Below are positions 1,037 through 46,460 of a stretch of 46,604 nt of DNA, piece by piece. The position numbers and the translations under genes are program-made. The DNA is from Escherichia phage vB_EcoS-UDF157lw, in sequence record OQ243221. One strand, 5' to 3'. Numbering within the stretch: the first letter of the stretch is position 1; the number at the start of each line of letters is the position of its first letter. Below the pieces are notes generated by a model. That model searched no databases. It worked only from the letters and a program-made list of their open reading frames with translations, and was not told the DNA's origin.

Positions 1037-1596
1037 TGTTTGATTTCGACGAAGATAAGTTAACTGATGACCAGGTGATGGAAGTCGCCAGGCAAGATAA
1101 CCTGCCGCCACTTCGTGTGGCAATCAATACTAATGGATACCGCCAATCATTCAATTTCTGGCCCAGCGCCGAAGAGATGCTGTGCGTCAAGTTGAGCTAC
1201 AAATACGGCGTCGTAGTGAGCATGATTAGACGCCAGGGCTGGAATGGAGTGGTTGGCATTCGATCTCTATACGAGGCAATCCGAAAGGTCCAGCCATTCG
1301 TCTGGCGCGAAGGGATTATGCATGACCTGACAAATAACATCATCCCAGAACTACAGGAGGCGGGAATTGTTTGCCTCATTGGCGATAAGATTTATGTTCA
1401 TCCGGCCCTGGTTGAGATGGATAAGGACGACGTGCAAAACTGGTGCAGTCAGTGCCGATCCGACGCGCCACGCTCAAACTACGTGCCACCGCAAACAACA
1501 ATCCATGGCTATGATGCCGATGAGGTGGAGAAGGCCATACAGTTCTACCGGAAAGCGAAAGCTCTCCTGAATGGTGAATATAGCACAAATTGCTAA
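1036..1596 (+). CDS. Truncated paralogue of the replication P-loop ATPase (N- and C-terminal domains only, 186 aa)
   Basis: Start overlaps previous stop (TAATG). N-terminus MFDFDEDKLTDDQVMEVARQDNLPPLRVAINTNGYRQS matches N-terminus of the 42577-44160 minus-strand protein; C-terminal GVVGIRSLYEAIRKVQPF...CLIGDKIYVHP matches its C-terminus; the ATPase core is absent. Confidence 0.7.
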   Translation: MFDFDEDKLTDDQVMEVARQDNLPPLRVAINTNGYRQSFNFWPSAEEMLCVKLSYKYGVVVSMIRRQGWNGVVGIRSLYEAIRKVQPFVWREGIMHDLTNNIIPELQEAGIVCLIGDKIYVHPALVEMDKDDVQNWCSQCRSDAPRSNYVPPQTTIHGYDADEVEKAIQFYRKAKALLNGEYSTNC

Positions 1597-1623
1597 ACAA
1601 TAAATTGGGTAGTCAGCTATGAT
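1581..1623 (+). promoter_or_regulatory. Composite promoter-like element: TAGCACaaaTTGCTAAA, 22 nt, TATGAT
   Basis: Palindrome TAGCA-N5-TGCTA overlapping the stop of the upstream gene; -10-like hexamer 22 nt downstream; leader ...AAACGAGAGGA before ATG 1655. Confidence 0.5.
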
Positions 1624-1654
1624 TACCCTATCAACCAAACGAGAGGAATAAAAG

Positions 1655-1888
1655 ATGATCTTAATTAACCTATCTGAAAGGCAAGCCAAAGAGATTAAAG
1701 CAGTACTGATGCATTGCATTAACCGAAAGCTATTTAGCTCGTCAGAATCGCTTACAGAGGTTGTAAATCAGATTCGAAATCAGGAGTTTGAAGATATACT
1801 GCCGTGGGAAGAGGACTTGGCCTGGCTTGAGTACGAGCAGGTTTGCACGGCACTATCAGGCTGCCAACTGGCTAGCCAATACAAGTGA
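1655..1888 (+). CDS. Hypothetical protein (77 aa)
   Basis: ORF with RBS aacgagagga; preceded by composite promoter element. Confidence 0.5.
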   Translation: MILINLSERQAKEIKAVLMHCINRKLFSSSESLTEVVNQIRNQEFEDILPWEEDLAWLEYEQVCTALSGCQLASQYK

Positions 1889-2006
1889 CAATCTACGAAC
1901 ACACGTTCAGCAGCAGGGGTATCGATATGCTCTTGCATTACGTAGACGAGAGATACGCCATGTTAATGCAGAAGACGCATGGCGGCACTATAAAGAGGGT
2001 TGAGAT

Positions 2007-2123
2007 ATGTACTACTATATAATTCCTGTTGAAGATTTGATTCGTGATTACAGTCACGGCTACATTGCTGTATGCGACGCTGATACAATGACTGCATATG
2101 TTGACTTTGATTTTGAGGATTGA
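2007..2123 (+). CDS. Small hypothetical protein (38 aa)
   Basis: Hand-translated ORF MYYYIIPVEDLIRDYSHGYIAVCDADTMTAYVDFDFED; RBS agaggg-ttgagat-ATG nearly identical to the RBS context of the next gene. Confidence 0.3.
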   Translation: MYYYIIPVEDLIRDYSHGYIAVCDADTMTAYVDFDFED

Positions 2124-2126
2124 GAT

Positions 2127-2426
2127 ATGAGTAAGTACGAAAAAGAGATTATTGGCCTGGACGGCACCAAGACTACGGTTGATGTATATCGCGTCATCGC
2201 AGCATTTGGCGTAACGGACCCGGCACTACAGCATGCCATCAAAAAGGTACTGTGCAGCGGCATTCGAACACGACATAAGGATTACCCTACCGACATCAAT
2301 GAGGCCATTGTATCGCTTCAGAAGGCCATAGAATTCCATGATCAAAGGGGCGCACATGTCCAGGAACTTATAGACAAGTATCGCAACGGACCTAAACATT
2401 ATCTTGATAGCTGGAGCAACAAATAG
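2127..2426 (+). CDS. Hypothetical protein (99 aa)
   Basis: ORF with RBS gagga 8 nt upstream; the stop codon is the TAG of the downstream TAGCAC motif. Confidence 0.55.
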   Translation: MSKYEKEIIGLDGTKTTVDVYRVIAAFGVTDPALQHAIKKVLCSGIRTRHKDYPTDINEAIVSLQKAIEFHDQRGAHVQELIDKYRNGPKHYLDSWSNK

Positions 2427-2466
2427 CACAAATTGCTAAACATCCATCGCAAGGATGCGTTACCAT
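2424..2466 (+). promoter_or_regulatory. Composite promoter-like element: TAGCACaaaTTGCTAAA, 22 nt, TACCAT (weak -10)
   Basis: Same architecture; spacer holds inverted repeat CATCC...GGATG; leader TATCGAAATGAGACGAGG. Confidence 0.4.
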
Positions 2467-2498
2467 TACTTTATCGAAATGAGACGAGGAAAGATTAA

Positions 2499-2627
2499 AT
2501 GTGTGGATATGATGAGTTGCCAAGTGAATGGTGTAAAAAGATGATGGATGAGGCTAAAGATGGGGATGAAGTAATGGCGTACTTTGAGTTGATGAACATG
2601 TGGCATGAGCGCGAGGAGAAGAAATGA
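2499..2627 (+). CDS. Small hypothetical protein (42 aa)
   Basis: ORF MCGYDELPSEWCKKMMDEAKDGDEVMAYFELMNMWHEREEKK with RBS cgagga; stop overlaps next start (ATGA). Confidence 0.3.
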   Translation: MCGYDELPSEWCKKMMDEAKDGDEVMAYFELMNMWHEREEKK

Positions 2628-2917
2628 AGATTTACGTATTCACTGGCAACTTATTGGCAGCCAACGATTCTGAAGGTGGTGACGGCAAGCGAGCAATTCA
2701 CATGGGGAGTAAGAAACAAACAATGAGGCGCATATCTATTGATGAAGCAATTAAAATTGGTAGCTTCGTTTGCTTGTGGGTATGTGATGGTGAGCTTCAA
2801 GCGGAACAGGTTAGGAATGGTTACGTATATACTGGATATGATGAATATGACGATGAGAGAGAATTGTTTCAGCCTGCATTTTATCTCGACGCTGAATTTT
2901 ACATCGCTGGAGAATAA
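2624..2917 (+). CDS. Hypothetical protein (97 aa)
   Basis: ORF in track; translationally coupled to the upstream small ORF. Confidence 0.5.
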   Translation: MKIYVFTGNLLAANDSEGGDGKRAIHMGSKKQTMRRISIDEAIKIGSFVCLWVCDGELQAEQVRNGYVYTGYDEYDDERELFQPAFYLDAEFYIAGE

Positions 2918-2920
2918 CCC

Positions 2921-3770: not shown

Positions 3771-3846
3771 GTTCTGCTGGCGTAACAGGATAACGCAGAG
3801 ACCTCCTAAGTCTCAGTTACTGGTTCGAGTCCAGTGCGGAACACCA
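3771..3846 (+). tRNA. tRNA-Arg (anticodon CCU, reads AGG)
   Basis: Hand-folded cloverleaf: acceptor GTTCTGC/GCGGAAC (one G-U), D-arm GCGT/ACGC with GG in loop, anticodon stem GAGAC/GTCTC with loop CTCCTAA (U33, CCT, A37), T-arm ACTGG-TTCGAGT-CCAGT, discriminator A, encoded CCA. Confidence 0.85.
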
Positions 3847-4100: not shown

Positions 4101-4147
4101 CGTCCATAGTCATGGTACAATGACTTTTAAAACAGGAGGAATATCAA

Positions 4148-4663
4148 ATGTCAGAAGAGAAAAAGATTCACCAGAAGATTGGCAACTTCAAGGAGCTATA
4201 CAATAAGAAGTATGGCGACATTGCCAATCTAAAGATTAACCACAGGTACACTCCTGAGCAGGTATTCGACATGGCCGTAAGGTATTTCAGCTGGGCTGAA
4301 GAGCAAGCGATTAAGGCCATTGAAACGGCGAGCTTTCAGGGTGTTGTAACGGAAAACCTTGTTCATAAGCCACGAATATTTACGATAACTGGATTCCAAC
4401 TTTTCTGCGGCGTTGGTCATAATGCCATCAGTAAATGGCGCTCTTCGCCTGGATTTGATGAGGTGATGGAGTTTGTGGATTCGGTAATCTTTGAGCAGAA
4501 GTATCAGCTTGGCGTTAACAACATCATCAACCCTGGACTGATTGGCAAAGACCTTGGCATCGATAAGCCGCAAGAGGTTAACATCAACAACGCTTCTAAT
4601 GCGGCAGTGAACGATGAAGAAGCGATCAAGGCTGCTCTCGAATCAGTAATTGATAAGCTATAG
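4148..4663 (+). CDS. Putative terminase small subunit (171 aa)
   Basis: Position immediately upstream of the terminase large subunit; strong RBS aggagga; own promoter-like region after terminator. Assignment is positional. Confidence 0.5.
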   Translation: MSEEKKIHQKIGNFKELYNKKYGDIANLKINHRYTPEQVFDMAVRYFSWAEEQAIKAIETASFQGVVTENLVHKPRIFTITGFQLFCGVGHNAISKWRSSPGFDEVMEFVDSVIFEQKYQLGVNNIINPGLIGKDLGIDKPQEVNINNASNAAVNDEEAIKAALESVIDKL

Positions 4664-4703
4664 CACTAATTGTCAAAACTCATGGATGAGTTATTGATAT
4701 CAT
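4661..4703 (+). promoter_or_regulatory. Composite promoter-like element: TAGCACtaaTTGTCAAA, 22 nt, TATCAT
   Basis: Motif overlaps terS stop; spacer contains inverted repeat CTCAT..ATGAG; precedes HNH gene. Confidence 0.45.
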
Positions 4704-4728
4704 CATTTAATCAATGTTAGGAGGGTTT

Positions 4729-5217
4729 ATGAATTGGCATGATGAATTTGATTATGATGATGGGCTGCTTTACTGGAAGTGCAGCTTAAAAAATGGCTCA
4801 AGAAAGAAAGGCCACGTTGCTGGTAATATTGACGCAAGCGAAGGTTATGTGAACATAAATTTAAAGACTGGAAAGGTTAAAGCTCACCGTGTTATATGGG
4901 AGATGTTTAACGGTAAAATACCTGACGGAATGGAAATTGACCACATCAACCATGACAGAAGCGACAACAGAATTGATAACTTGAGAATGGTTACTAGGTC
5001 AGAGAACCAAAAGAATAAGAGTAGGTTCAAGAACAACACTTCAGGAATATCAGGTGTAACATGGTGTAGTCGCCATTGCAAATGGAGGGCCAGAATCATG
5101 ATTAACGGAAAGTCAAAGAATCTAGGTAGATTTGACACAATAGAAGCTGCGGCAAAGGCTCGCTCAGACGCTGTAGACGCTCTCGGTTTTCACAAGAATC
5201 ACGGAGATAGAAATTAA
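4729..5217 (+). CDS. HNH homing-type endonuclease with AP2-like DNA-binding domain (162 aa)
   Basis: Motifs EIDHINHDRSDNRIDNLRMVTRSENQ (HNH) and GVTW...KWRARI...LGRF (AP2-like). Start moved to ATG 4729, which follows RBS taggaggg. Confidence 0.8.
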   Translation: MNWHDEFDYDDGLLYWKCSLKNGSRKKGHVAGNIDASEGYVNINLKTGKVKAHRVIWEMFNGKIPDGMEIDHINHDRSDNRIDNLRMVTRSENQKNKSRFKNNTSGISGVTWCSRHCKWRARIMINGKSKNLGRFDTIEAAAKARSDAVDALGFHKNHGDRN

Positions 5218-10475: not shown

Positions 10476-10529
10476 TGCCAAAATTCTGTTACAATCATTA
10501 AGACTATTAACCGATATGGAGTAAATGAA

Positions 10530-15754: not shown

Positions 15755-15797
15755 ATGTTATAATTTCAACTCAAACAAACATGAGAGGATTATTTAA

Positions 15798-19899: not shown

Positions 19900-19900
19900 A

Positions 19901-19943
19901 TAGCACTAATTGCTAAACAGAAATACCAAGGAAGGTTTACAAT
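19901..19943 (+). promoter_or_regulatory. Composite promoter-like element: TAGCACtaaTTGCTAAA, 22 nt, TACAAT
   Basis: Motif begins at the stop codon of the M-like gene; precedes the inserted 71-aa ORF. Confidence 0.5.
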
Positions 19944-19971
19944 TAAAAAACTTAAACAAGAGGTGATTGAT

Positions 19972-22318: not shown

Positions 22319-22368
22319 TTTAGTGTAGAATGGCACAAATGGTTAAACAAACAACGAGGTTATATGAT

Positions 22369-26993: not shown

Positions 26994-27017
26994 TTTGTAT
27001 TCCTTAGTAAGTATGTT

Positions 27018-27077: not shown

Positions 27078-27078
27078 T

Positions 27079-27270: not shown

Positions 27271-27435
27271 TTTTCTAAAAGACTATGTTTGACTTCCTGT
27301 TAAGGAGGAGATGCATATAGATATAGATAGGGTGCAATTGTGGTGGATACATTGGTTACAAGAGTTACAGCCAGTGCTGGTGCGGTTTAGAAGGTAGCGA
27401 ACCGTATTTATGTGCTTTTTACACCGATATACAGA

Positions 27436-28639: not shown

Positions 28640-29608
28640 ATGAGCTTCAAGGTTTACACTAGCGACGAGTTAACCAACGAAGCCTACCACAAGGAGTCAG
28701 ACCATGTGTCTGGCTCTGGTCTGGCTCACATCTTCTCAACTTGCCCCGCTGCTTATAAGTTTGCAGAGCATGATGATAGCAATAAGGCGTTAAAGTTCGG
28801 TACATTAGCCCACACGGTTATTCTTGAAAACTATGTATTCGATGCGACTTACTATCGCCAGCCAGCGCAAGAAGAGTTTGAGGATCTGATTACTAGCAAG
28901 ACTGCTTTGGCAACTCGATTGAAGTCGATGGGTATTGCTGGAACATCTGGTAAGGATTATCCAGAATTAATGGAGATTCTGGCGCTGAGCGGTGAATCAC
29001 TTAACGTATGGTGGGATATTCAGCGCTCTAGCGAGGTTAAAGCGAACGGTCGCGAGATTGTATCAGCTAAAGACTTTGACACAGTACATGCGATGCGAGA
29101 GGTGCTGTGCGGCATTCCTGCATACAATGCGATAGTGAACAGTAAAACCGCTCAGCGAGAGTTATCAATCTTCGGTGAGATTAACGAGTGCGGCGTTAAG
29201 GTTCGTCTTGACCATGTCGATGTCGTTGATGATGTAGTTTATATCCGTGACTACAAGACGACTAGCGACGCATCTCCATCTGGATTTGGGAGATTGGCCT
29301 TCAAGCATGGTTACTTGCTAAAAATGGCGCTTCAGCATGATTTGTTTGTTCGCGCCTTTAATGAGAAGCGTCGAGTTGTTGTTCAGCTTCTTTGCCAGGA
29401 AAAGAAAAGCCCATTCCTTCCAATGTGCTACACGATAACAAAAGAGCACTTAAAGGTTGGTAGATTGCAATACATGAGCGCCCTATCCACATACAAGCAA
29501 TGCAAGAAACTTGATATTTGGCCTGGTTACGGATTTGGCGAAACAGAGATGGAACTGCAAGTTCCTGAGTATGAGATGAAGAAGTACGAAGATAGCACGA
29601 ATAGCTAA
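28640..29608 (+). CDS. Recombination exonuclease, PD-(D/E)XK family (RecE/YqaJ/lambda-Exo-like, 322 aa)
   Basis: Motif LDHVDVVDDVVYIRDYKTT (D..D..K-type nuclease core); adjacent to an Erf-family annealase. Confidence 0.65.
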   Translation: MSFKVYTSDELTNEAYHKESDHVSGSGLAHIFSTCPAAYKFAEHDDSNKALKFGTLAHTVILENYVFDATYYRQPAQEEFEDLITSKTALATRLKSMGIAGTSGKDYPELMEILALSGESLNVWWDIQRSSEVKANGREIVSAKDFDTVHAMREVLCGIPAYNAIVNSKTAQRELSIFGEINECGVKVRLDHVDVVDDVVYIRDYKTTSDASPSGFGRLAFKHGYLLKMALQHDLFVRAFNEKRRVVVQLLCQEKKSPFLPMCYTITKEHLKVGRLQYMSALSTYKQCKKLDIWPGYGFGETEMELQVPEYEMKKYEDSTNS

Positions 29609-29635
29609 AACGGTATTAAATCGATGGGGTATAGT
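29593..29635 (+). promoter_or_regulatory. Composite promoter-like element variant: TAGCACgaaTAGCTAAA, 20-22 nt, TATAGT, leader CATCGACAACAAAGAGAG
   Basis: Overlaps the exonuclease stop; hairpin CGATGGGGTA-TAG-TTACCTCATCG spans the -10. Confidence 0.45.
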
Positions 29636-29664
29636 TACCTCATCGACAACAAAGAGAGATAGAA

Positions 29665-30312
29665 ATGAAGACTTCAGAGAGTAACAAAACAGTTTTACAG
29701 GCACTATTTAAAGCTCGCACAGGATTTGCGAAGGCAGCAAGAGACAAGCAGAACAGTCACCTAAAGAATAGATACGCAACACTTGATTCCATGCTGGAGG
29801 CTGTAATCCCAGCACTTGATGATAACGACTTAATGATTATGCAGAGCATGTTAGAAACATCAACTGCTGACAATCTTAACGTAGAGACGACTCTCTATCA
29901 CGTTTCTGGCGAGTGGGTTAGCTTCTTCATGATTATGCCAATCGTTAAGAAAGACCCGCAAGGAGTAGGATCTGCATTTACATACGCTCGGCGTTACTCA
30001 CTAGCGGCGGCTTTGGGAATTAGTCAGTCTGACGATGATGCGCAGATGGCAGTTAAGAGCGTCAAGGACTGGAAGCGCGATATTGAGAAGGCAGAAACTC
30101 GAGAAGAGCTTATCGAAATCTACAAATCATGCAAATCACAAGCTGACACGGCAACGTGGGGTATAGTAGAGAAAGCGATAATAGATAAACAAGCAGAGAT
30201 CAAAATGGCTTCCGCAAGTGGCTTCAACCCAGCTAAGCCAAAGGAAGTTGCTAAAAAAGTTGCAAACGCAACTAATGAAGTAGTAGAATCACAATCAATC
30301 GAGCAGTTCTAA
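29665..30312 (+). CDS. erf: Erf-family single-strand annealing protein (215 aa)
   Basis: Conserved Erf-like stretch LYHVSGEW...FTYARRYSLAAALGISQSDDD; paired with the exonuclease. Confidence 0.8.
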   Translation: MKTSESNKTVLQALFKARTGFAKAARDKQNSHLKNRYATLDSMLEAVIPALDDNDLMIMQSMLETSTADNLNVETTLYHVSGEWVSFFMIMPIVKKDPQGVGSAFTYARRYSLAAALGISQSDDDAQMAVKSVKDWKRDIEKAETREELIEIYKSCKSQADTATWGIVEKAIIDKQAEIKMASASGFNPAKPKEVAKKVANATNEVVESQSIEQF

Positions 30313-33530: not shown

Positions 33531-33582
33531 GTTATTTCTCCTATTTGATAGATGAAACCTATTGTATCAGATTAAATGCAAT

Positions 33583-34532: not shown

Positions 34533-34545
34533 TTTTATTTAATCC

Positions 34546-34578
34546 AATAAAAAGGTTGTACCGATTATGGCACAACCT
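34546..34578 (-). terminator. Rho-independent terminator (minus strand) between HTH gene and primase
   Basis: 8-bp stem AAGGTTGT/ACAACCTT followed by a U-run on the minus strand. Confidence 0.55.
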
Positions 34579-34584
34579 TAATTT

Positions 34585-35058
34585 TTACTCTTTAGCTTTT
34601 CGTGCTTCTTCTCTTTCTTTCTTAACCTTTCGCCATGATTTACGCTGCGGCTTGGTTGCTAACTCAGCTTCTGTAACAACTCGAAGCATCTGACGCTTCT
34701 TGCATCGCAGTGTTAGAGGCTTGCCGTTACCGTCGAACTGTAAATCAGGTCGGCAGAATGTAGCCCTGAACCCCTCTCCAGTTCGCTTATATCGATTATG
34801 CGCAAGCTGTGCGCCGCGAGCTGAAATCATTCCCCGCTTACACCATTCTTCTACAGCCTGGCGCGTAACCTTTAGCTGCTTAGCTAGATTGGCCTTGCTG
34901 CCGTAGAAGTCCAATACAATCTCAAGGCGCGCCCTTAATCCCGCTCTCACTTCATCCTTTAGTACATAGTAACCTGATGGACGCTTACGCGGCTTCTTGT
35001 CTTCTGTGCGAATTGTTCCGTTGTTACCATTAAGAGTACGCTTGTCAATTGAATCCAT
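34585..35058 (-). CDS. Helix-turn-helix DNA-binding protein (Cro/YdaS-like, 157 aa)
   Basis: Motif GSKANLAKQLKVTRQAVEEWCKRGMIS; basic Lys/Arg-rich C-terminus; divergent from the helicase operon. Confidence 0.55.
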   Translation of the reverse strand: MDSIDKRTLNGNNGTIRTEDKKPRKRPSGYYVLKDEVRAGLRARLEIVLDFYGSKANLAKQLKVTRQAVEEWCKRGMISARGAQLAHNRYKRTGEGFRATFCRPDLQFDGNGKPLTLRCKKRQMLRVVTEAELATKPQRKSWRKVKKEREEARKAKE

Positions 35059-35072
35059 TTTCTCACCTCAAT

Positions 35073-35113
35073 AGCACTTTTTGTTAAACATTGGTTTAGA
35101 TGGATGTTATTAT
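35073..35113 (+). promoter_or_regulatory. Composite promoter-like element: TAGCACtttttGTTAAA, 21 nt, TATTAT
   Basis: Lies in the divergent intergenic region; the -10 sits inside the track ORF start, which argues for the downstream ATG 35151. Confidence 0.45.
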
Positions 35114-35150
35114 ATCGCCAATCGAACGAACATTAAAGGCATTTGATATT

Positions 35151-37094: not shown

Positions 37095-37483
37095 TGGTTA
37101 AGGTTTTTCACGACAAAACAAGCACGGACAAGGCTAAAGAGGTTGTTCACCAAATAAATTCAATAGCTTGGGTTCGCCACAACCATCCAGAGATATTTGC
37201 TTTTCACGTGAAGAATGAAGGTCTCAAGTCTATCGGCACAGCAATGAAGGACAAGCAGGAGGGAGTAATTAAGGGTGTATCAGATATTCTACTGATTGGA
37301 CCAAATGGCTTTGCCGCAATAGAGCTTAAGCGAGCAATAAAATCAGATAGCAAGGTTTCAAAGGAGCAAAAGGAGTTCCTGGAAAAGGTATCAGAAACAG
37401 GAGGTTACGCGGCAATCTGTTATGGGTTTGAAATGTTTAAGTTGGCAATTACAGATTATCTATCAAATAGCACGAATTGCTAA
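37094..37483 (+). CDS. VRR-NUC-type nuclease (129 aa)
   Basis: Motif GVSDILLIGPNGFAAIELKRA (PD-(D/E)XK-like D...E.K); start overlaps the helicase stop (TAATG). Confidence 0.6.
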   Translation: MVKVFHDKTSTDKAKEVVHQINSIAWVRHNHPEIFAFHVKNEGLKSIGTAMKDKQEGVIKGVSDILLIGPNGFAAIELKRAIKSDSKVSKEQKEFLEKVSETGGYAAICYGFEMFKLAITDYLSNSTNC

Positions 37484-37510
37484 AGAGATTTCGCAAGGAT
37501 GCGATATAGT
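37468..37510 (+). promoter_or_regulatory. Composite promoter-like element: TAGCACgaaTTGCTAAA, 22 nt, TATAGT, leader CATCGAAACGAAGAGAG
   Basis: Canonical copy; spacer holds CGCAAGGATGCG. Confidence 0.55.
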
Positions 37511-37541
37511 TACTTCATCGAAACGAAGAGAGAGAAACAAA

Positions 37542-38151: not shown

Positions 38152-38153
38152 AT

Positions 38154-38195
38154 AGCACTTTTTGTTAAAACTAAAATACAAGGATGGATTATATT
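38154..38195 (+). promoter_or_regulatory. Composite promoter-like element: TAGCACtttttGTTAAA, 21 nt, TATATT
   Basis: Follows the stop of the previous gene. Confidence 0.45.
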
Positions 38196-38225
38196 AATTA
38201 CATTAGCAAATGAGAGGGTTAAGAG

Positions 38226-38587: not shown

Positions 38588-38841
38588 ATTTACCTGGTCT
38601 GGATTTTGATGAGAGTAAGTATCAGGTTGTGTTTTTTGGTGAGAAGCCTTATCGGAAGATTCCTTTCTCTGAGTGGATTCCTCCGGACTACCTCGATGTA
38701 CTGGTGCAAATTGAGATTGGTAAAGCTGAGTTGATGTACTATTCGCCAGGTTGCAATATGATGATGCCTAGTGAGTATTCACCAGCAATTTCTGCTTTAG
38801 AAACTGAGTTTCTTGATTACTGGCTAAAAGAAGTAAAATAG
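38584..38841 (+). CDS. Hypothetical protein (85 aa)
   Basis: ATGA overlap with the previous gene. Confidence 0.45.
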   Translation: MNLPGLDFDESKYQVVFFGEKPYRKIPFSEWIPPDYLDVLVQIEIGKAELMYYSPGCNMMMPSEYSPAISALETEFLDYWLKEVK

Positions 38842-38881
38842 CACTTTTTGTTAAAACACATCGCCATGGATGGCGTATAGT
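38839..38881 (+). promoter_or_regulatory. Composite promoter-like element: TAGCACtttttGTTAAA, 22 nt, TATAGT, leader CATCGAAACGAGAG
   Basis: Spacer holds hairpin CGCCAT-gg-ATGGCG. Confidence 0.5.
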
Positions 38882-38908
38882 GTGTTCATCGAAACGAGAG
38901 ACGATTCA

Positions 38909-38992: not shown

Positions 38993-40126
38993 ATGGCTAT
39001 AGCTAAAATCACCAACGAAGAGTTAAAGCAAGAACTGGCTAACGGTATGACTAACAAGGCAATCGCAGAGAAGTACGGTATGAATATTCGTAACGTAGAG
39101 CTGCGTCGCAGCAAGTTGGCTAAGGCTGGGGATGGTCACGGTCGCGATGTGAGTAACCTAATTCCTCAGGGCTACATGGTTAAAGGTGTATCTAGCCTTG
39201 TTGATAATGATGGCAATGTGAAGTTGCAATGGGTTAAGTCCTCTATTGATGCAGAGAAGCTTGAGGAGATGATGAATCAAGCGCGAGAGGCATTCTCTAG
39301 CGAGCTACCAAAAGAAAAAGCAGTTAAATCTGAAGGTCTGAATTTTGATGAAGATACTTTAGCTATGTATCCAGTATTTGACCTTCACATTGGCGCAATG
39401 GCCCACAAGCATGAGTGCGGAGAAAACTACGACACAGCAACGGCAGAGAAAGTAATGAACGATTATTTTGACTACGCCGTACAGAAATCTCCAAATTCAA
39501 AGAATGCTGTACTAGTGCTAGGAGGTGATCTGCTTCATTATGATTCTTTGGAAGCCAAAACTCCAGCCAGTGGTCACATCCTGGACAGTGACAGTCGCTA
39601 CGCCAAGATTGTTTATGTTTGCATTCGAGCGGTTCGCCGCGCAATTCGAAACATGCTTAGCAAACATGAAAACGTAGAGGTTAAAGTTATATCTGGTAAT
39701 CATGATGAAAGTGGTATGGTTTGGTTGCGGGCTGCGCTTGCTGCATTTTATGAGGAAGAGCCACGCGTTAGTATTGATGTTAGTCCCGCGGCAATGATGG
39801 TAACTAAGTTTGGTTCTACAATGCTTGGTTTCACTCACGGGCATCAAATGCGTAAAGCTGATACTCGCCTTTCGGTTATGGCTACTGACTGGCGACGTGA
39901 CTTTGGTTTAAGTGATTATGTATACACCCACTCAGGCCACTGGCATTCACAGAAGATTACAGAGACAAATCTTGGTATTGATGAGGTTCATGGTCAGCTT
40001 GGTTCACCAGATGCATATAGTGCGAATGGTGGATGGCGCTCACAAAGGCAGGCCGCGGTAATCATCTATCATAAAGAGTTTGGTGAGGTTGGTCGCTTTA
40101 TCTGCCGTCCAGAAATGTTCAAATAA
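38993..40126 (+). CDS. Calcineurin-like metallophosphoesterase with N-terminal HTH-like domain (377 aa)
   Basis: Phosphoesterase motifs D-L-H (FDLHIG), GGDLLH, GNHDE, GH.H (HSGHWH); N-terminal about 110 aa with HTH-like TNKAIAEKYGMNIRNVELRRSKL. Confidence 0.8.
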   Translation: MAIAKITNEELKQELANGMTNKAIAEKYGMNIRNVELRRSKLAKAGDGHGRDVSNLIPQGYMVKGVSSLVDNDGNVKLQWVKSSIDAEKLEEMMNQAREAFSSELPKEKAVKSEGLNFDEDTLAMYPVFDLHIGAMAHKHECGENYDTATAEKVMNDYFDYAVQKSPNSKNAVLVLGGDLLHYDSLEAKTPASGHILDSDSRYAKIVYVCIRAVRRAIRNMLSKHENVEVKVISGNHDESGMVWLRAALAAFYEEEPRVSIDVSPAAMMVTKFGSTMLGFTHGHQMRKADTRLSVMATDWRRDFGLSDYVYTHSGHWHSQKITETNLGIDEVHGQLGSPDAYSANGGWRSQRQAAVIIYHKEFGEVGRFICRPEMFK

Positions 40127-40145
40127 TATCACTTTTTGTTAAAGC
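40127..40145 (+). promoter_or_regulatory. Motif variant TATCACtttttGTTAAA without clear -10
   Basis: Upstream half degenerate (TATCAC); no TATAGT-like hexamer at the expected spacing. Confidence 0.25.
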
Positions 40146-40191
40146 CCTTCGAGGCTTTTGAGATGCGTCAGCTACAGATATAGGAATCAAA

Positions 40192-40389: not shown

Positions 40390-40432
40390 ATAGCACGAAT
40401 TGCTAAAACGAAAATCAAAAGATGGGGTATAG
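40390..40432 (+). promoter_or_regulatory. Composite promoter-like element: TAGCACgaaTTGCTAAA, 22 nt, TATAGT, leader ...AAACGAGAGGA
   Basis: Hairpin GATGGGGTA-TAG-TTACCCCATC spans the -10. Confidence 0.55.
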
Positions 40433-40465
40433 TTACCCCATCTAAACAAACGAGAGGATACAAAG

Positions 40466-41080: not shown

Positions 41081-41139
41081 TTATGTCAAAGTTTAATATC
41101 TGGTATTATTTAATCAAATCAACTTAAAGAGGCCGCAAC

Positions 41140-42576: not shown

Positions 42577-44160
42577 TTACCCCAGCAGCCGTGGATTGAT
42601 ATATACCTTGTCACCAATCAGGCAGGTATAGTTTTTATCATCAAGCATCGGGAGTAAGTGGTCTTTAATTTTAGCCATAACACCAGCCTGTGACTCGAAA
42701 GGTCGAACCTTACGCGCAGCTTCATAAAGTGAACGCAAACCCACAACTCCTTTACTGTTCTTGCCTTGCTTGATAAGGATATCAATTAACTTGTTCATCT
42801 CAGCGTTATCGCCAGCATGACCAGCTGCGTTAGCAGAAGATAAGTAAGTCTTGCTAAGTTCTTCAAACATCAATAAAGCCTCCTGCATCGTTTCCAGTCC
42901 AATCTCCCTGGACTTCTGCGGACTACCGCCATTTGGATTAAACCAGTTACGTATGGTGTGAAGAACGGCAGCAAGGCGAATAACCTGTTTATCCATTTTA
43001 CCTAGTGCGCCACGGAGCATTGTGTGTGAATACTTGCCGCCATCCGCAAGGTGTGGCTCCATTTCCTGTCGAGCACGGTTAAGGTGCTTCATTGCTGAGT
43101 TACTAATAGTCAACTTCACATCTTGCTCACTCATAATTTCATGAACAAGACGGAAGTAATCAGCCTTCAACGCTCCGTCAATCGGCTCATATGTTGACTC
43201 GCCATTATCATCGACGAAAACACGCTCACCAAGGAATGACTTTTCACGCACAAGCAAGAAACGTTCGGATACACCAATACCGCGAGCACCAGCATTCATG
43301 ATTGCGACTATTGTTTCATCCTGCGCAATTACAGAAATACACCCCATAGCAATAAAGCTCATGTTGTTCTCTGCGTTCGCACGCGCGATAGATACGTTAC
43401 CAGCATCCCAGGCCTTAAGTACCAGTTCGCTGTTTGTTTTCTTTGTTCCATCACCATAGGTCATGCCCAGCAGTGAGTTGACGCTCGTCGCCTCATCCGA
43501 GATGACAGCGAAGCTACCCTGACGATGGTTAATGCGTGCCAGACCTTCAGGAGTAGTATCAGATACAGGGAATACGATGTCGCAAAGTTTCTCGAGCTTA
43601 TCTTCCAGCTCCTCCTTCTCCTCAAACAAACCAGCCATCTCAGAAGGCGACTTCTCCTGCTTCATTTCTTTAGCCAGAGCCGACAGCTTGGCCATAATCT
43701 TTTTACGGTCACGCTTACGCAGATCGTTTAGTCGCTCAGTCTCTGCAATCATTGGAGCAAGAGACAGCGAGTTAATGGCAGATTTACCAGTTGATGGAGG
43801 CTGGCTGGTCACTACATACAGTGATGTTGGTTGTTGAGTTCCGTGATACTCAACCGTAAAGCGACCTAACATAGCTGCCGAGATGCAACCAAGGAAGTGC
43901 ATATAAGCAGATGATTCAGGAAACTGAACAGAACGAGCAATGTTGCTTGATAGTTTGCCAACTACATCATAGTCGTTACCAAGCGAGATAACAGGATACT
44001 TGTCGCCAGTAGAATCAATCTCAACCGGAGCTTTCCAGAATGATGCGCTCTGGCGATAACCGTTCGCATTAATAGCAACACGTAAAGGAGGTAATCCATC
44101 CTGAGCGGCAACAGCCATTACTTGTTCAACAGTCAATTTGTCATCATTAAAATCAAACAT
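42577..44160 (-). CDS. Putative replication-associated P-loop NTPase (helicase/primase-associated, 527 aa)
   Basis: Deviant Walker A PPSTGKS and Walker B-like FAVISDEATS; RBS GAGAGAG before ATG 44160; N- and C-termini are paralogous to the 1036-1596 protein. Confidence 0.6.
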   Translation of the reverse strand: MFDFNDDKLTVEQVMAVAAQDGLPPLRVAINANGYRQSASFWKAPVEIDSTGDKYPVISLGNDYDVVGKLSSNIARSVQFPESSAYMHFLGCISAAMLGRFTVEYHGTQQPTSLYVVTSQPPSTGKSAINSLSLAPMIAETERLNDLRKRDRKKIMAKLSALAKEMKQEKSPSEMAGLFEEKEELEDKLEKLCDIVFPVSDTTPEGLARINHRQGSFAVISDEATSVNSLLGMTYGDGTKKTNSELVLKAWDAGNVSIARANAENNMSFIAMGCISVIAQDETIVAIMNAGARGIGVSERFLLVREKSFLGERVFVDDNGESTYEPIDGALKADYFRLVHEIMSEQDVKLTISNSAMKHLNRARQEMEPHLADGGKYSHTMLRGALGKMDKQVIRLAAVLHTIRNWFNPNGGSPQKSREIGLETMQEALLMFEELSKTYLSSANAAGHAGDNAEMNKLIDILIKQGKNSKGVVGLRSLYEAARKVRPFESQAGVMAKIKDHLLPMLDDKNYTCLIGDKVYINPRLLG

Positions 44161-44203
44161 TATTATCATCTCTCTCTAAATGCCCCCGAAGGGGCTTGAC
44201 TAT

Positions 44204-44383: not shown

Positions 44384-44421
44384 TTTTTAGCCCTTTTAAT
44401 GTATTTCGTTTCGATGAAGAG

Positions 44422-44465
44422 AATATATCAATTTTTGTTGTTAAGTCCTTTAGCAAAAAGTGCTA
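44422..44465 (-). promoter_or_regulatory. Composite promoter-like element (minus): TAGCACtttttGCTAAA, 23 nt, TGaTATATT, leader CATCGAAACGA
   Basis: Reverse complement read directly. Confidence 0.5.
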
Positions 44466-44582
44466 TTAAAGACCAACCAGACATTTGCCAACTACAACAG
44501 CGATTGCGCCCATGAAGCCAAAGAAACCAAACTTAATTACTTGTTCCATTACCGCATCAACTGCTTTAGAGATGTTTTTCAT
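44466..44582 (-). CDS. Small hydrophobic protein (38 aa, MKNISKAVDAVMEQVIKFGFFGFMGAIAVVVGKCLVGL)
   Basis: Strong RBS AAGGTGA; C-terminal TM-like segment; the track N-terminal extension translates through a terminator hairpin and is rejected. Confidence 0.35.
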   Translation of the reverse strand: MKNISKAVDAVMEQVIKFGFFGFMGAIAVVVGKCLVGL

Positions 44583-44612
44583 TTTGTTCACCTTAGTTTT
44601 TGTCTTCTTGAT

Positions 44613-44663
44613 GGAAACAAATATACCCGCCGAAGCGGGTACTGTCATTAGCAAAAAGTGCTA
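44613..44663 (-). promoter_or_regulatory. Overlapping terminator and promoter-like element (minus): TAGCACtttttGCTAA, hairpin ACCCGC-ttcg-GCGGGT, TATATT
   Basis: The hairpin and U-rich tract sit inside the spacer between the palindrome and the -10-like hexamer. Confidence 0.45.
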
Positions 44664-44870
44664 TTTTTTTAAGTGCCCTGGCGCATAGCATTTTCCATCC
44701 TTCTTATGCAAAACCCACCCAGCATATTTAAGTTGCCTTGCACAATCAGAAAAGTTCTCGCCCGCAGCGTCCGTATAGTGTGGCATAAAATAAGAACCAT
44801 CATCATTTGACTCAGTTGAGCACTTCTTACAGTCGCAATAAACAGCGATGGAATAACCTGAAACAATCAT
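44661..44870 (-). CDS. Hypothetical Cys-rich small protein (69 aa)
   Basis: CDCKKC ... C ... C pattern suggests a zinc-binding protein. Confidence 0.45.
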   Translation of the reverse strand: MIVSGYSIAVYCDCKKCSTESNDDGSYFMPHYTDAAGENFSDCARQLKYAGWVLHKKDGKCYAPGHLKK

Positions 44871-45220: not shown

Positions 45221-45245
45221 TACTATTTTCCTTTTTGGTTTGTTA

Positions 45246-45548
45246 TTAGTTAGCGTTATGACGTTCGATATAGTCGCGGATTGTTTCGCCTACGCTTTTA
45301 GCGGCACCAAAAGTGCCCTTTGCGTGGCGTGAATCGCGGTACGTCTGGAAGAATTTACGAGCGATGTTTGCGAACATTGAACCAGTCACGCGAGCATCAC
45401 CGAAATTTGTTTCGATAGCGTTGCTAATGCCATCCTTGAACTCATTTTCAGTCATGAACATCTCTGCCATGCCAGCAGTCTCGAAAAGGTTAGCTAATTC
45501 ATTCATGTTGTTATGGTCTTCGGCTGTAAACAGGTTCATGTTAATCAT
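45246..45548 (-). CDS. Hypothetical acidic protein (100 aa)
   Basis: ORF in track; preceded on the minus strand by promoter element and CATCGAAACGAAAC leader. Confidence 0.5.
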   Translation of the reverse strand: MINMNLFTAEDHNNMNELANLFETAGMAEMFMTENEFKDGISNAIETNFGDARVTGSMFANIARKFFQTYRDSRHAKGTFGAAKSVGETIRDYIERHNAN

Positions 45549-45581
45549 CTTCGTGATTCCTTAGTTTCGTTTCGATGAGAT

Positions 45582-45625
45582 GAATATACAATAAAAGCCC
45601 CGAAGGGCTTTAGCAATTCGTGCTA
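45582..45625 (-). promoter_or_regulatory. Composite promoter-like element (minus): TAGCACgaaTTGCTAAA, hairpin AGCCC-ttc-GGGGCT, TGTATATT
   Basis: Reverse complement read directly; the TAG of the motif is the stop codon of the upstream 50-aa ORF. Confidence 0.5.
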
Positions 45626-45775
45626 TTTCTTTGCTGCTTTTGCAATTGCCTTCTGGACGATGTTGAAGCTCTCAATCAAATCTTCTTTGAAGTAGTCACC
45701 AACAGGCCAACCCTTACCGCTGTACTTTGCTATAGTTTCTAGATCGTAATAGTTCAAATCAGATGGTTTAAGCAT
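45623..45775 (-). CDS. Small hypothetical protein (50 aa)
   Basis: Hand-translated MLKPSDLNYYDLETIAKYSGKGWPVGDYFKEDLIESFNIVQKAIAKAAKK; start abuts the upstream stop (TAAATG). Confidence 0.35.
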   Translation of the reverse strand: MLKPSDLNYYDLETIAKYSGKGWPVGDYFKEDLIESFNIVQKAIAKAAKK

Positions 45776-46015
45776 TTACCTCACCTCATCAAAAGTTGCG
45801 ACACCAGGGATAAACATTCCGACCTTCCAACCTGCGATAGCAATCCATCCAGAATCGTGCTTGTGCGGTCGCTCGGCGCCATTAATCACCCACTCGTTCG
45901 GGATTGTCTTGCCGTTAATGATTAGCAGCTCAGCTTCGTATACAGAGCCTTTTACAAATGGCGTCAAAACCTTTTTGTCTGTACTGTTAATAACGTTTGT
46001 GCAGCGAATTTTCAT
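45776..46015 (-). CDS. Hypothetical protein (79 aa)
   Basis: ORF in track. Confidence 0.5.
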   Translation of the reverse strand: MKIRCTNVINSTDKKVLTPFVKGSVYEAELLIINGKTIPNEWVINGAERPHKHDSGWIAIAGWKVGMFIPGVATFDEVR

Positions 46016-46025
46016 ATCTCAATCC

Positions 46026-46205
46026 TCAAATAAATGGTAAACATTCGACGCAGCCAAGTCCATCGCAGCACAGAAATTCATCTTCTGACTGGAATTGCTT
46101 AGCCAAATCAATGTCCAGCTTTCCGCGCAGCACAAGGTTGGTGTAAACTTCGTTAAGTCCAATCAGTGCGCATTCGTGGCGCAAATCGTCTTTATCAATC
46201 TTCAT
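46026..46205 (-). CDS. Small Cys-rich hypothetical protein (59 aa)
   Basis: Hand-translated; C-terminal CCDGLGCVEC; start overlaps the upstream stop. Confidence 0.4.
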   Translation of the reverse strand: MKIDKDDLRHECALIGLNEVYTNLVLRGKLDIDLAKQFQSEDEFLCCDGLGCVECLPFI

Positions 46206-46389
46206 ACCGCTCTACCTCGAAGTTGTATACCATTACGTTTCTATCATGCTTGTTCTTTATCACCATTGACTCAAGCTCTTCGTATACAGCCACTACATTG
46301 TAAACACCACCAGGCTCAAGGCCGTAGAATTCGTATTCTTCATCGTCAAAACCATCCGTTTTACTTAGTGCTGTTATTTTTACCTTCAT
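46195..46389 (-). CDS. Hypothetical acidic protein (64 aa), first gene of the leftward operon
   Basis: RBS GAGGAG; promoter element immediately upstream. Confidence 0.5.
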   Translation of the reverse strand: MKVKITALSKTDGFDDEEYEFYGLEPGGVYNVVAVYEELESMVIKNKHDRNVMVYNFEVERYED

Positions 46390-46417
46390 ATCTATCTCCT
46401 CGTTGTTGATGAGTTTA

Positions 46418-46460
46418 CTATAGCCTTGCCATCCCCATTTTTCTTTAGCAAAAAGTGCTA
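46418..46460 (-). promoter_or_regulatory. Composite promoter-like element (minus): TAGCACtttttGCTAAA, 21 nt, TATAGT, leader CATCAACAACGAGGAG
   Basis: Reverse complement read directly; drives the leftward small-gene operon. Confidence 0.5.

Follow-up and report, generated by a model that had tools for sequence, protein, structure and literature searches.

A host-type MarA/SoxS/Rob box in the repeated promoter cassette of a T1-like coliphage: a candidate case of borrowed regulation

The 46,604-nucleotide sequence of Escherichia phage vB_EcoS-UDF157lw (OQ243221), analysed at its full length and hereafter called the window, is that of a complete T1-like coliphage of the Rogue1/Rtp/JK06 type. The pattern TAGCACNNNTTGYTAAA, with at most two mismatches allowed, occurs in it 17 times on both strands from 1581 to 46460 (1.14 matches expected; maximum of 4 in 100 shuffles), which bears out the two-strand repeat of about 17 copies that a preliminary description of this DNA had reported at the same positions. 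One further site, with its box at 34589-34608 on the minus strand, lies 5' of the primase gene (Table 1). The 17 listed sites are all real matches; as promoters, those at 22331 and 40127 drop out: they lack a usable -10 and probably are dead copies.

Table 1. The 18 sites of the repeat in the window. Boxes and -10 hexamers of minus-strand sites are given in the direction of reading; the offset runs from the G of GCAC to the -10; starts are predicted.
Feature	Position	Strand	Putative marbox	-10 hexamer	Start	Context
Cassette	1580-1654	+	1580-1599 (ATAGCACAAATTGCTAAACA)	TATGAT, 1618-1623	A, ~1630	Precedes 77-aa ORF 1655-1888; box TAA (1594) is the stop of ORF 1036-1596; bracket hairpin GGGTA/TACCC, -13.4 kcal/mol
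Cassette	2423-2498	+	2423-2442	TACCAT, 2461-2466	~2473	Precedes ORFs from 2499; box TAG is the stop of ORF 2127-2426
Cassette	4660-4728	+	4660-4679 (TTGTCAAA variant)	TATCAT, 4698-4703	~4710	Precedes HNH endonuclease gene 4729-5217, an insertion that separates the two terminase genes (small, large); the AHP24 annotation shows a sigma70-like promoter at the corresponding position
Cassette	19900-19971	+	19900-19919	TACAAT, 19938-19943	~19950	Box 15-mer is the ChIP-seq consensus; precedes inserted 71-aa ORF 19972-20187 among tail genes
Degenerate box	22330-22349	+	ATGGCACAAATGGTTAAACA	None usable (TATGGC)		Overlaps start codon of 1141-aa tail fibre gene; probably not a promoter
Cassette	26994-27078	-	27078-27059	TATAGT, 27039-27034 (offset 36)	~27027	Leader CATCGAAACGA; precedes putative lipoprotein gene 26993-26748 (label from the AHP24 annotation)
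Cassette	29592-29664	+	29592-29611	TATAGT, 29630-29635	~29642	Precedes Erf-like recombination gene 29665-30312 and ssb; box TAA is the exonuclease gene stop; bracket hairpin GATGGGGTA/TACCTCATC, -16.5 kcal/mol
Eighteenth site	34533-34608	-	34608-34589 (GAAGCACGAAAAGCTAAAGA), 14.8 bits	CATAAT (-10-like)		Primase gene 34532-33609 downstream; promoter function ambiguous because a terminator (hairpin, then T-run) holds the -10-like hexamer in its loop; T1 equivalent annotated as a terminator
Cassette, divergent region	35071-35150	+	35071-35090	TATTAT, 35108-35113 (offset 34), TGt directly before	~35120	Precedes helicase gene (start 35151 per Rogue1 annotation); no significant hairpin on folding of the cassette, as expected since no upstream gene reads in
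Cassette	37467-37541	+	37467-37486	TATAGT, 37505-37510	~37517	Leader CATCGAAACGA; precedes small ORFs from 37542; box TAA is the VRR-NUC gene stop
Cassette	38152-38225	+	38152-38171 (TTGTTAAA variant)	TATATT, 38190-38195	~38202	Precedes ORFs from 38226
Cassette	38838-38904	+	38838-38857	TATAGT, 38876-38881	~38888	Leader CATCGAAACGA; precedes small ORF, then phosphoesterase/exonuclease gene 38993-40126
Degenerate copy	40126-40191	+	TCAC replaces GCAC, 11.6 bits	None found		Terminator-like hairpin GCCCTTCGAGGC-TTTT follows; now probably merely a terminator
Cassette	40390-40465	+	40390-40409	TATAGT, 40428-40433	~40440	Precedes ORFs from 40466; best bracket hairpin of the window, AGATGGGGTA/TACCCCATCT, loop is the TAGT of the -10, -17.2 kcal/mol, z = -6.8
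Cassette	44384-44466	-	44466-44447	TATATT, 44427-44422 (offset 36)	~44415	Leader CATCGAAACGA; precedes ORF 44383-44204 and probably serves the DUF3987 helicase gene too
Cassette, weakened box	44583-44664	-	44664-44645, AAT replaces AAA, 10.3 bits	TATATT, 44625-44620		Hairpin CCCGC-TTCG-GCGGG abuts the -10; 38-aa ORF downstream
Cassette	45549-45626	-	45626-45607	TATATT, 45588-45583	~45576	Leader CATCGAAACGA; terminator-like hairpin GCCC-TTCG-GGGC-TTTT within spacer; precedes ORF 45548-45246
Cassette	46390-46461	-	46461-46442	TATAGT, 46422-46417 (offset 36)	~46410	Heads leftward early gene string (46389 downwards)

The element had been described as intergenic, which does not hold strictly: at 13 of the 18 sites, the stop codon of a co-directional ORF (40 codons or longer) lies inside the box or no more than 6 nt away, and this stop is mostly the TAG or TAA belonging to the box itself. 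It had also been said to mark small accessory genes and insertions and to spare the core structural genes. Inserted genes are indeed marked, and the core structural operon is free of the element except before the HNH endonuclease gene and the 71-aa ORF; the restriction to small accessory genes fails, as the genes of replication and recombination (Erf-like protein, helicase and possibly primase) are preceded by it as well. Early and accessory genes appear to be fronted by about 16 copies of a promoter with a near-perfect putative MarA/SoxS/Rob box.

The composite architecture of box, spacer, -10-like hexamer and leader is real. The hexamers (TATAGT, TATATT, TATCAT, TACAAT and similar) lie 22-23 nt past TTGCTA, too far for the latter to be a -35, as had been argued, and no -35 hexamer is conserved in the window cassettes, the best match to TTGACA averaging 2.7 of 6 positions. 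An A stands 7 nt past the -10 in 16 of 18 sites, and the leader CATCGAAACGA is found in six exact copies in the window, five of them at cassettes, with near variants at several other sites. The placement of the box at the position of a class II activator likewise stands. From the G of GCAC to the -10 there are 35 nt in 11 window sites, 36 in five and 34 in one; among 564 related sites, the offset is 35 in 283, and 34 and 36 in 33 each. The same peak is seen in 287 sites that the search pattern could not have selected (128, 19 and 14 sites at offsets 35, 34 and 36; about 0-2, and at most 8, at any other). In K-12, the corresponding distance is 35 at micF, the promoter whose structures have been solved bound by Rob, SoxS and RamA, 35 at nfo and 34 at fumC. 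The box always faces forward, as class II promoters require. At the level of sequence, its orientation and spacing agree exactly, base pair by base pair, with those of class II mar/sox/rob promoters.

The box itself had been read as a 15-bp palindrome bound by a dedicated dimeric factor, a proposal that the present comparison does not support. Judged by its sequence, it is an asymmetric 20-mer, which agrees with the E. coli marbox AYnGCACnnWnnRYYAAAY in essentially all positions. The flanking A-T and the C/T choice obey this consensus, and the central triplet keeps its W, the common triplets all ending in A or T. With a weight matrix built solely from 87 published Salmonella ChIP-seq sites (MarA/SoxS/Rob/RamA), 18 window sites reach at least 14 bits (0.83 expected; no more than 3 in any of 200 random sequences). 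Of the 17 originally listed sites, 15 fall between the 84th and 100th percentile of sites that are really bound. The matrix consensus GCACTAATTGCTAAA is identical to the window site at 19903; a SoxS-bound site on Salmonella pSLT has the same sequence as the window sites at 1583 and 2426, and a RamA/SoxS-bound one the same as T1 site 46155. Symmetry is confined to a 5+5 core, perfect in 54% of 456 related sites, whose single variable position is C or T, that is, the Y of the marbox. The most conserved flanks are unmirrored: C (0.96) faces T (0.97), with complementarity in 1% of sites, and the invariant 3' AAA has a 5' AAA opposite it.

A phage-encoded dimeric activator acting on TAGCA-N5-TGCTA at about -41.5, with the likeness to the marbox a coincidence or mimicry, would turn the element into the signal of a middle regulon. 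The candidates named were the 157-aa HTH protein (34585-35058), the Rha-like protein and the HTH-phosphoesterase. The dyad is there, and both it and the A immediately 5' of GCAC (1.8 bits) are conserved beyond what the marbox consensus demands. Moreover, the HTH protein is found only in T1-like genomes of about 43-52 kb, is conserved in 830 of them and hence co-occurs with the motif, and its gene adjoins one cassette (35071-35090). We nevertheless regard such an activator as unlikely: the best-conserved flanks are complementary in only 1-9% of sites, and the very C-to-T change that the marbox allows breaks the dyad in 27%. The proposed binders are of Cro/YdaS-like, Rha-family and metallophosphoesterase type, none of them a two-HTH protein of the AraC family. 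Since nearly all early promoters are of the cassette type, the source of the first activator would be problematic, and sequence, orientation and spacing equal those of the host system base for base. The extra conserved A and the dyad could reflect a second binder, for example the HTH protein, a core gene of the family, which may act as a repressor on the semi-palindromic core.

The distribution of the element also bears on this alternative. The cassette is present in about 850 records, almost entirely from phages of Enterobacteriaceae, and the box recurs with the same offset in the unrelated Slopekvirus and Phapecoctavirus and in a 61-kb contig, where the gaps nearby have ordinary -35 hexamers in place of the box. 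Slopekvirus and Phapecoctavirus are without the HTH regulator of the T1 family. These copies may be few and horizontally acquired, so that they attest persistence, not function. No AraC/XylS homologue is encoded in any of the six frames of the window. Given an upstream box near-perfect for MarA, SoxS and Rob, the stress and antibiotic-resistance activators of the host, these sequences suggest that the phage borrows a host regulator instead of encoding one.

The early region shows no excess of canonical sigma70 sites (29 found, 40.9 expected), and the authors of a study on phage TLS likewise found only three (PMC11447400). At the left end of the window, a promoter with its -10 at 439-444 has the same -10 and leader, while an A-tract and a -35-like TTTATA replace the box. 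Such a promoter would fit a factor-independent element in which the box is an UP-element-like or DNA-shape enhancer for the alpha subunit of RNA polymerase and a good -10 with G-14 suffices. The box has A-tracts on both sides (aaATA... and ...TAAAa), strong -10 hexamers and a conserved G-14 accompany it, and an UP element was among the options of the TLS authors (PMC11447400). This explanation appears quite improbable: the invariant positions contain G and C (GCAC, TGC), whereas UP elements have A/T runs, the -10 follows at a constant 35 ± 1, equal to micF, and the information profile of the box tracks the ChIP matrix (Spearman 0.88, a similarity inflated by the use of that matrix in choosing the large set of related sites).

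A newly recognized feature of the element is an RNA hairpin with covarying arms which encloses or abuts the -10. Over 409 promoter cores with 189 different 5' arms, its mean z is -2.6, and the sense strand is the more stable one in 291 cores versus 113 for the antisense (p = 2e-20). Where a co-directional ORF ends at the box, the hairpin is much stronger (-11.6 vs -6.9 kcal/mol, p = 4e-11); on this pattern, it is assigned to the upstream transcript. Some of these hairpins are true terminators, which might recommend a non-initiation signal: a stoperator, as raised by the TLS authors (PMC11447400), a terminator, an RNA processing site or a recombination hotspot for cassette shuffling. Cassettes do border the insertions (HNH endonuclease, 71-aa ORF) and turn up again in unrelated phages, as an aid to exchange would. 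However, box and -10 always point the same way at a fixed separation, with a conserved start purine and a start codon some 30 nt further on; the box lies outside the hairpin, and an upstream gene affects the strength of the hairpin but not the box or the -10. A signal of this kind is very improbable indeed, and recombination would be a by-product rather than an alternative.

The element has been seen before. The 21-nt direct repeats (aaATAGCACnnnTTGnTAAAA) published for phage TLS in 2024, and also noted for T1, Rtp and Rogue1, were left open as to function, with stoperator, enhancer site and UP element as options (PMC11447400). They agree with it in consensus, in three classes of central triplet, in co-orientation with genes and in lying about 76 nt before start codons; the link to the marbox, the fixed -10 spacing and the hairpin are added here. 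Class II MarA/SoxS/Rob (RamA) promoters such as micF, nfo and fumC share the asymmetric forward 20-bp marbox over the -35 position, the 35 nt from GCAC to the -10, the lack of a -35 and an ordinary sigma70 -10. In contrast to these, the phage boxes come close to the optimum (15-18.6 bits; micF, fumC and nfo reach 8-15), number 15-25 per virulent genome of about 47 kb, and are fused to an upstream stop codon, an RNA hairpin and a conserved short leader.

T4 middle promoters (MotA box, AsiA, sigma appropriation) also form a multi-copy regulon with a TGCT-containing activator box in place of the -35 and an ordinary -10. That box has its centre at -30, with 11-13 bp to the -10, and requires phage MotA and AsiA, whereas TTGCTAAA would lie at -40 to -33, 22 nt from the -10, with the upstream GCAC apparently essential. 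The CII-dependent promoters of lambda (TTGC-N6-TTGC straddling the -35) are similarly of the activator type, lack a -35 and contain TTGC. A phage tetramer recognizes their sites, which are direct repeats; the box described here has a single TTGC within an asymmetric GCAC...AAA. The stoperators of mycobacteriophage L5 are likewise many, short, asymmetric and oriented with transcription, but they belong to a temperate phage, whose repressor they bind, and they block elongation; the boxes described here belong to virulent phages and keep a set distance to a -10.

Taken together, the element is probably a compact class II promoter cassette of the mar/sox/rob kind that uses a host activator of the AraC/XylS family. 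The near-consensus marbox, at about -50 to -31, would take the place of the -35 hexamer and be bound by a monomeric activator touching sigma70 region 4 and the alpha C-terminal domain. Host RNA polymerase would thereby be recruited to a good TATAGT-like -10 with its G at -14, transcription would start at the conserved A, and a leader of about 25 nt (AUCGAAACGAGAGG...) would continue into the ribosome-binding site. The hairpin would be superimposed on the only free positions, the spacer and discriminator, holding the -10 in its loop or adjoining it as a terminator; on transcripts reading in from the upstream gene, it may act as a terminator or 3'-end stabilizer. Rob would be the likely default activator because it is constitutively abundant in the host, with MarA and SoxS, and RamA in Klebsiella, Salmonella and Enterobacter, contributing under stress. 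Without inducers, most Rob is sequestered and inactive, and unstressed cells contain little MarA or SoxS. T1-like phages are very fast growers in plain broth, which is at odds with such a scarcity of active Rob, MarA and SoxS; near-optimal boxes may, on our assumption, compensate for a low supply of activator. By this route, a host regulator would switch on the early, replication and accessory genes of the phage without any phage-made factor.

Terminase, portal and early-region DNA of Escherichia phage vB_EcoS-UDF157lw are 80-99.5% identical to those of Rogue1, AHP24/AHS24, JK06, Rtp and their relatives, so the window is essentially the complete genome of a T1-like virulent coliphage; the source taxa of the matches belong to the Drexlerviridae, Rogunavirinae. 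The preliminary description had listed 17 copies of a composite repeat in this genome, and both the copy number and the layout are borne out. With up to two mismatches, TAGCACNNNTTGYTAAA matches 17 times (1.14 expected, maximum 4 in 100 shuffles), and the extracted sites run from a box through 22-23 nt to a TATAGT-like hexamer and a leader, CATCGAAACGA(G)AG, which leads into the Shine-Dalgarno sequence and the ATG. A usable -10 is missing at two of the 17 listed sites, and an 18th box, absent from that list, precedes the primase gene. The placement had also been described as intergenic, which does not hold strictly, since the stop codon of the upstream ORF lies in the box or at most 6 nt away at 13 of the 18 sites. 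This stop is usually the box's own TAG or TAA. Of 379 related promoters, 314 (83%) have a co-directional ORF terminating at the box.

A literature search with the half-site returned as its top match a paper on MarA, SoxS and Rob. The marbox is a degenerate, asymmetric 20-bp sequence, AYnGCACnnWnnRYYAAAY, with GCAC as its A-box and YAAA as its B-box. In 456 related sites, the flanking A-T, the W closing the central triplet (TTT, GAA, TAA, AAA) and the C/T alternation all conform to it. A weight matrix independent of the phage was built from the 87 sites in Table 1 of a Salmonella MarA/SoxS/Rob/RamA ChIP-seq study; its consensus, GCACTAATTGCTAAA, is found letter for letter at one window site. 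With this matrix, 18 window sites reach 14 bits or more (0.83 expected). Of the 17 sites originally listed, 15 fall at the 84th-100th percentile of the sites with real binding. Three 15-mers from the phages recur unchanged among the sites bound in the Salmonella ChIP-seq data: two window sites equal a SoxS-bound site on plasmid pSLT, and one T1 site equals a site bound by RamA and SoxS.

The position of the box relative to the -10 follows the same pattern. Class II mar/sox/rob promoters carry a forward marbox over the -35 region, centred near -41, and cryo-EM structures of the K-12 micF promoter with Rob, SoxS and RamA are available. Counting from the G of GCAC to the first base of the -10, the offset is 35 in micF and nfo and 34 in fumC, to which the K-12 reference set is limited because no good box was found in the regions fetched for inaA and sodA. 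In the window the offset is 35 at 11 sites, 36 at five and 34 at one. The forward orientation, with GCAC distal and AAA proximal to the -10, is kept at all 16 window sites that have a -10 and at several hundred related sites. In T1, 17 of 24 boxes have a good -10 at offset 34-36, and composites of box and -10 number nine in a Klebsiella webervirus and eight in a Braunvirinae phage (0.00 expected in each). Among the matches listed, 1.2 Mb of related loci hold 564 distinct boxes, with a strong -10 at offset 35 in 283 of them and at 34 and 36 in 33 each. The peak recurs in the 287 boxes beyond the reach of the search pattern, of which 128 have the -10 at 35, 19 at 34 and 14 at 36, any other offset accounting for about 0-2 and at most 8. 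The logo of related sites also shows a G conserved at -14 and, 7 nt beyond the -10, a conserved A where the start is expected; the first ATG comes about 30-35 nt after the -10.

An ordinary sigma70 promoter with TTGCTA as its -35 had already been doubted, and the measurements agree: the spacer is 22-23 nt, and nothing better is found at 16-18 nt. The lack of a conserved -35 was likewise confirmed: the hexamer closest to TTGACA at a spacer of 16-18 nt agrees with it at 2.66 of 6 positions on average and never at more than 4; for published class II promoters the average is 1.9 and no value exceeds 3. The early region shows no enrichment of canonical sigma70-like sites (29 versus 40.9 ± 6.8 expected). 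A middle promoter of the T4 MotA kind would have a box with its centre at -30 and 11-13 bp between it and the -10. The phage box differs: 20 nt separate the end of TTGCTAAA from the -10, and the GCAC at 35 nt upstream does not vary. A lambda CII-type site is likewise rejected on geometry and repeat structure. UP elements are A/T-only tracts between -40 and -60 without invariant G or C, unlike the phage box, in which G, C, A, C and TG(C) show little or no variation (2.0 bits). Each sequence-level feature of a class II mar/sox/rob promoter is present in the phage element.

The preliminary description had proposed a dedicated dimeric factor acting on a 15-bp palindrome. Two-fold symmetry fails, however: only a 5+5 core is symmetric, and this is perfect in 54% of the 456 related sites, while the best-conserved flanks of the box are complementary in only 1-9% of them and are thus unmirrored. 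MarA-family proteins bind as monomers, placing one helix-turn-helix motif on GCAC and a second on YAAA. By Pfam and PHROGs, the binders suggested earlier are a Cro/YdaS-like HTH protein, a Rha-family protein and a metallophosphoesterase. The HTH protein (157 aa), the regulator of the T1 family, was found in 830 records of T1-like genomes, those listed all measuring 43-52 kb; the box at class II spacing occurs also in Slopekvirus and Phapecoctavirus.

A MarA-like protein encoded by the phage itself was considered and rejected. No AraC/XylS protein was found by Pfam and PHROGs scans among ten candidate regulators, and a six-frame search of the window for MarA, SoxS and Rob with approximate queries returned nothing (best tblastn E about 0.3; E above 4 for an HMM of three sequences run against all six-frame ORFs of at least 30 aa). 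As the queries were approximate, this negative is strong but imperfect. Most early genes stand behind such boxes, and a factor present before infection is therefore the simplest activator. Rob is constitutively abundant and largely inactive without inducers, and its site is also recognised by MarA, SoxS and RamA. It is well supported by sequence that host activators would drive the phage early genes; we infer that Rob would be the pre-existing one.

The hairpin around the -10 had not previously been described. Its inverted repeat has as its two arms the conserved GGATG ahead of the -10 and CATC in the leader, so that the CATC previously recorded as a conserved leader is the 3' arm paired with GGATG. 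In T1, a perfect repeat of 6-9 bp brackets the -10 at nearly every promoter, with a different sequence each time (e.g., GGGGTA/TACCCC, AAGGCCA/TGGCCTT, GAGGTG/CACCTC). Of 33 promoters, 15 have a perfect stem of 6 bp or more across the -10 (1.6 expected). Across 409 distinct cores (mean z -2.6), the -10 lies in the loop in 54%, a hairpin abuts the -10 in 28%, and a weak or no hairpin is found in 17%. In the abutting type the T-rich -10 then serves as the terminator tail, and a G+C-rich stem-loop with a U-run directly behind it is seen at three window sites. In the bracketing type the 3' arm is followed by AUCGAAAC, not by a U-run. Rfam gave no RNA family over the leader or the hairpin, its sole match in the window being a tRNA gene.

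The promoter's own transcript begins past the 3' arm, and the hairpin would therefore form only in RNA reading in from upstream. The cores hold 189 different 5' arms; the sense strand, favoured by G·U pairs, is more stable than the antisense strand in 291 cores versus 113 (p = 2e-20); and the mean energy is -11.6 kcal/mol for the 314 boxes at which a co-directional ORF ends, versus -6.9 for the 65 without one (p = 4e-11). A DNA cruciform or a protein-binding site is disfavoured by the variation of the arms, the sense bias and the dependence on the upstream gene, and a role of the RNA in read-through transcripts is favoured because of them. We infer that the hairpin acts as a terminator or 3'-end stabiliser of the upstream unit, set in the positions that the promoter leaves free.

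Coordinates of promoter-associated and other features in the window, in T1 (locus L004) and in other related phage loci (L numbers)
Feature	Sequence	Position	Strand	Remark
Bracketing or abutting hairpin	window	40420-40443, 29618-29647, 1609-1629, other cassettes
Bracketing or abutting hairpin	T1, L004	1453, 2272, 3538, 4347, 4867, 31446, 36447, 46155, 47630
G+C-rich stem-loop, then U-run	window	34605, 44661, 45623
Box TAG or TAA as upstream stop codon	window	1594, 2424, 4661, 29606, 37481, 38839, 44663, 45625, others		initial TAG or final TAA
Listed box, no usable -10	window	22331, 40127
18th box	window	34589-34608	minus	upstream of primase gene
Box equal to ChIP-seq consensus	window	19903
Boxes equal to pSLT site	window	1583, 2426
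HTH protein gene	window	34585-35058
Candidate left-end promoter region	window	400-493		-10 TATAGT 439-444; leader 450-462
Left-end gene	window	494-1036		DUF7174
Extended -10	window	4113-4121, 10487-10495, 15756-15764, 41101-41109
Extended -10	window	33561-33569	minus
AT-rich non-coding stretch	window	60-300		left end
AT-rich non-coding stretch	window	27079-27330		divergent gap before Rha-like gene
186-aa ORF	window	1036-1596
DUF3987 helicase gene	window	42577-44169	minus
tRNA gene	window	3771-3843		Rfam 57.6 bits; counterpart is tRNA-Arg annotated in AHP24
Antisense marboxes	T1, L004	15083, 18847	minus	16.3 bits
Box with aaATAGCACGAATTGCTAAAa	Phapecoctavirus Mt1B1_P17, L008	1200-1280		20 nt, then TAATAT
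Box at offset 35-36	Slopekvirus phiEap-3, L007	1200-1280		in several gaps
Box at offset 35-36	176-kb contig, L034, L035			in several gaps
Box at offset 36	61-kb contig, L026	8556		one box
Terminator between box and -10	176-kb contig, L034	940	minus
Terminator between box and -10	176-kb contig, L035	2927	minus
Terminator between box and -10	Slopekvirus phiEap-3, L007	270-352

The whole cassette was found at 76-84% identity in about 850 phage records, of which about 800 come from Enterobacteriaceae hosts; the remaining records are mostly short partial matches near the E-value limit. In phage families unrelated to T1, the box with its spacing unchanged appears singly or in several intergenic gaps. 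Phapecoctavirus Mt1B1_P17 has one such gap, and its adjacent gaps all hold TTGACA-N17 promoters. In Slopekvirus phiEap-3 and the 176-kb contig, gaps neighbouring those with a box use TTGCAT or TTGCGC as the -35. The hairpin bracketing the -10 and the CATCGAAACGAAAC-type leader are also seen in Slopekvirus at promoters without a marbox. At three sites in phiEap-3 and the 176-kb Slopekvirus-like contig, a full terminator stands between box and -10; this insertion brings the box to offset 46, exactly 11 bp, or one helical turn, beyond the class II position. In T1, two strong marboxes with weak to moderate -10-like hexamers lie antisense to structural genes, in intergenic gaps of the late region; they may be antisense promoters, and no equivalent was seen in the window.

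Several other features of the window were noted. The left-end gene shares the -10 and the leader (CATCGAAACGAGG) of the cassettes and has no marbox; a long A-tract and a -35-like TTTATA at 17 nt are found instead. Its promoter is a candidate for immediate-early, factor-independent use. In front of structural and lysis genes the design is different, with a terminator hairpin and, directly after it, an extended -10 (TGnTAyAAT or TGGTATTAT) with no -35. The enrichment of this motif is modest (10 versus 4.7 expected, reached by 2 of 100 shuffles); if real, it would mark late promoters independent of sigma region 4, so that an inhibitor of region 4 could switch expression from early to late. Similar ATACGCGTA-like words, ATTATTATTATTA runs and TATATAG words occur in two AT-rich non-coding stretches, which may have to do with an origin or with packaging. 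A shortened paralogue of the DUF3987 helicase is seen in the 186-aa ORF, which shares with the helicase about 40 N-terminal residues (MFDF.DDKLT..QVM.VA.QD.LPPLRVAIN.NGYRQS) and a C-terminal segment.

The repeat itself has been reported before. In the 2024 re-annotation of phage TLS (PMC11447400), a 21-nt direct repeat, aaATAGCACnnnTTGnTAAAA, was described in 21 copies, co-oriented with genes, about 76 nt upstream of start codons and with central triplet classes A, T and G, and "similar repeats" were mentioned in T1, Rtp and Rogue1. Its authors found only three credible sigma70 promoters and named a stoperator, an enhancer site and a UP element as possible functions of the repeat. The related sites collected here give the logo aaATAGCACnnnTTGyTAAAa, with triplets TTT, GAA, TAA and AAA and about 70-76 nt from box to ATG; the phage element and the published TLS repeat are one and the same. 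In the annotations of AHP24 and Rogue1, the sites are not marked as a family. Within the searchable papers, which did not include Roberts et al. 2004 (T1 genome, Virology) and Martin et al. 1999 (marbox rules), none was found that ties T1-like phages to MarA, SoxS, Rob or the marbox; the searchable literature likewise yielded no transcript-start map for the T1-like family. We regard the copies as new members of an established type of promoter, unexpected in where they lie and in how many there are.

More broadly, the early programme of the whole T1 family, together with individual genes of unrelated enteric phages, would be wired to the host MarA/SoxS/Rob/RamA stress regulon, the phage thereby reading the bile-salt, antibiotic and oxidative-stress state of its host, with the covarying RNA hairpin that holds the -10 in its loop put to dual use. 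Taken as a whole, we give this proposal an even chance of being right. A single stretch of DNA would then close one transcription unit at its 3' end and act as core promoter for the unit that follows. As short marbox promoters close to the optimum, the cassettes would potentially be strong and inducible and could be used as parts or reporters. The marbox reading also turns the question of how the T1 family starts transcription into a direct experiment. The family considered here comprises phages of Escherichia, Shigella, Salmonella, Klebsiella, Enterobacter, Citrobacter and Cronobacter; T1 is a classical T phage, and relatives such as the Klebsiella weberviruses are candidates for therapy. If the proposal is true, a virulent phage family leans on a host activator of stress and antibiotic resistance for its early genes, and a rob marA soxS triple mutant would be a poor or non-permissive host. 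Multidrug-resistant mutants with upregulated efflux (marR, ramR, soxR) would be better hosts. By raising MarA, RamA or SoxS, bile salts, salicylate, redox drugs or resistance mutations might boost phage gene expression, which would build a trade-off between drug resistance and phage sensitivity into the biology of these phages.
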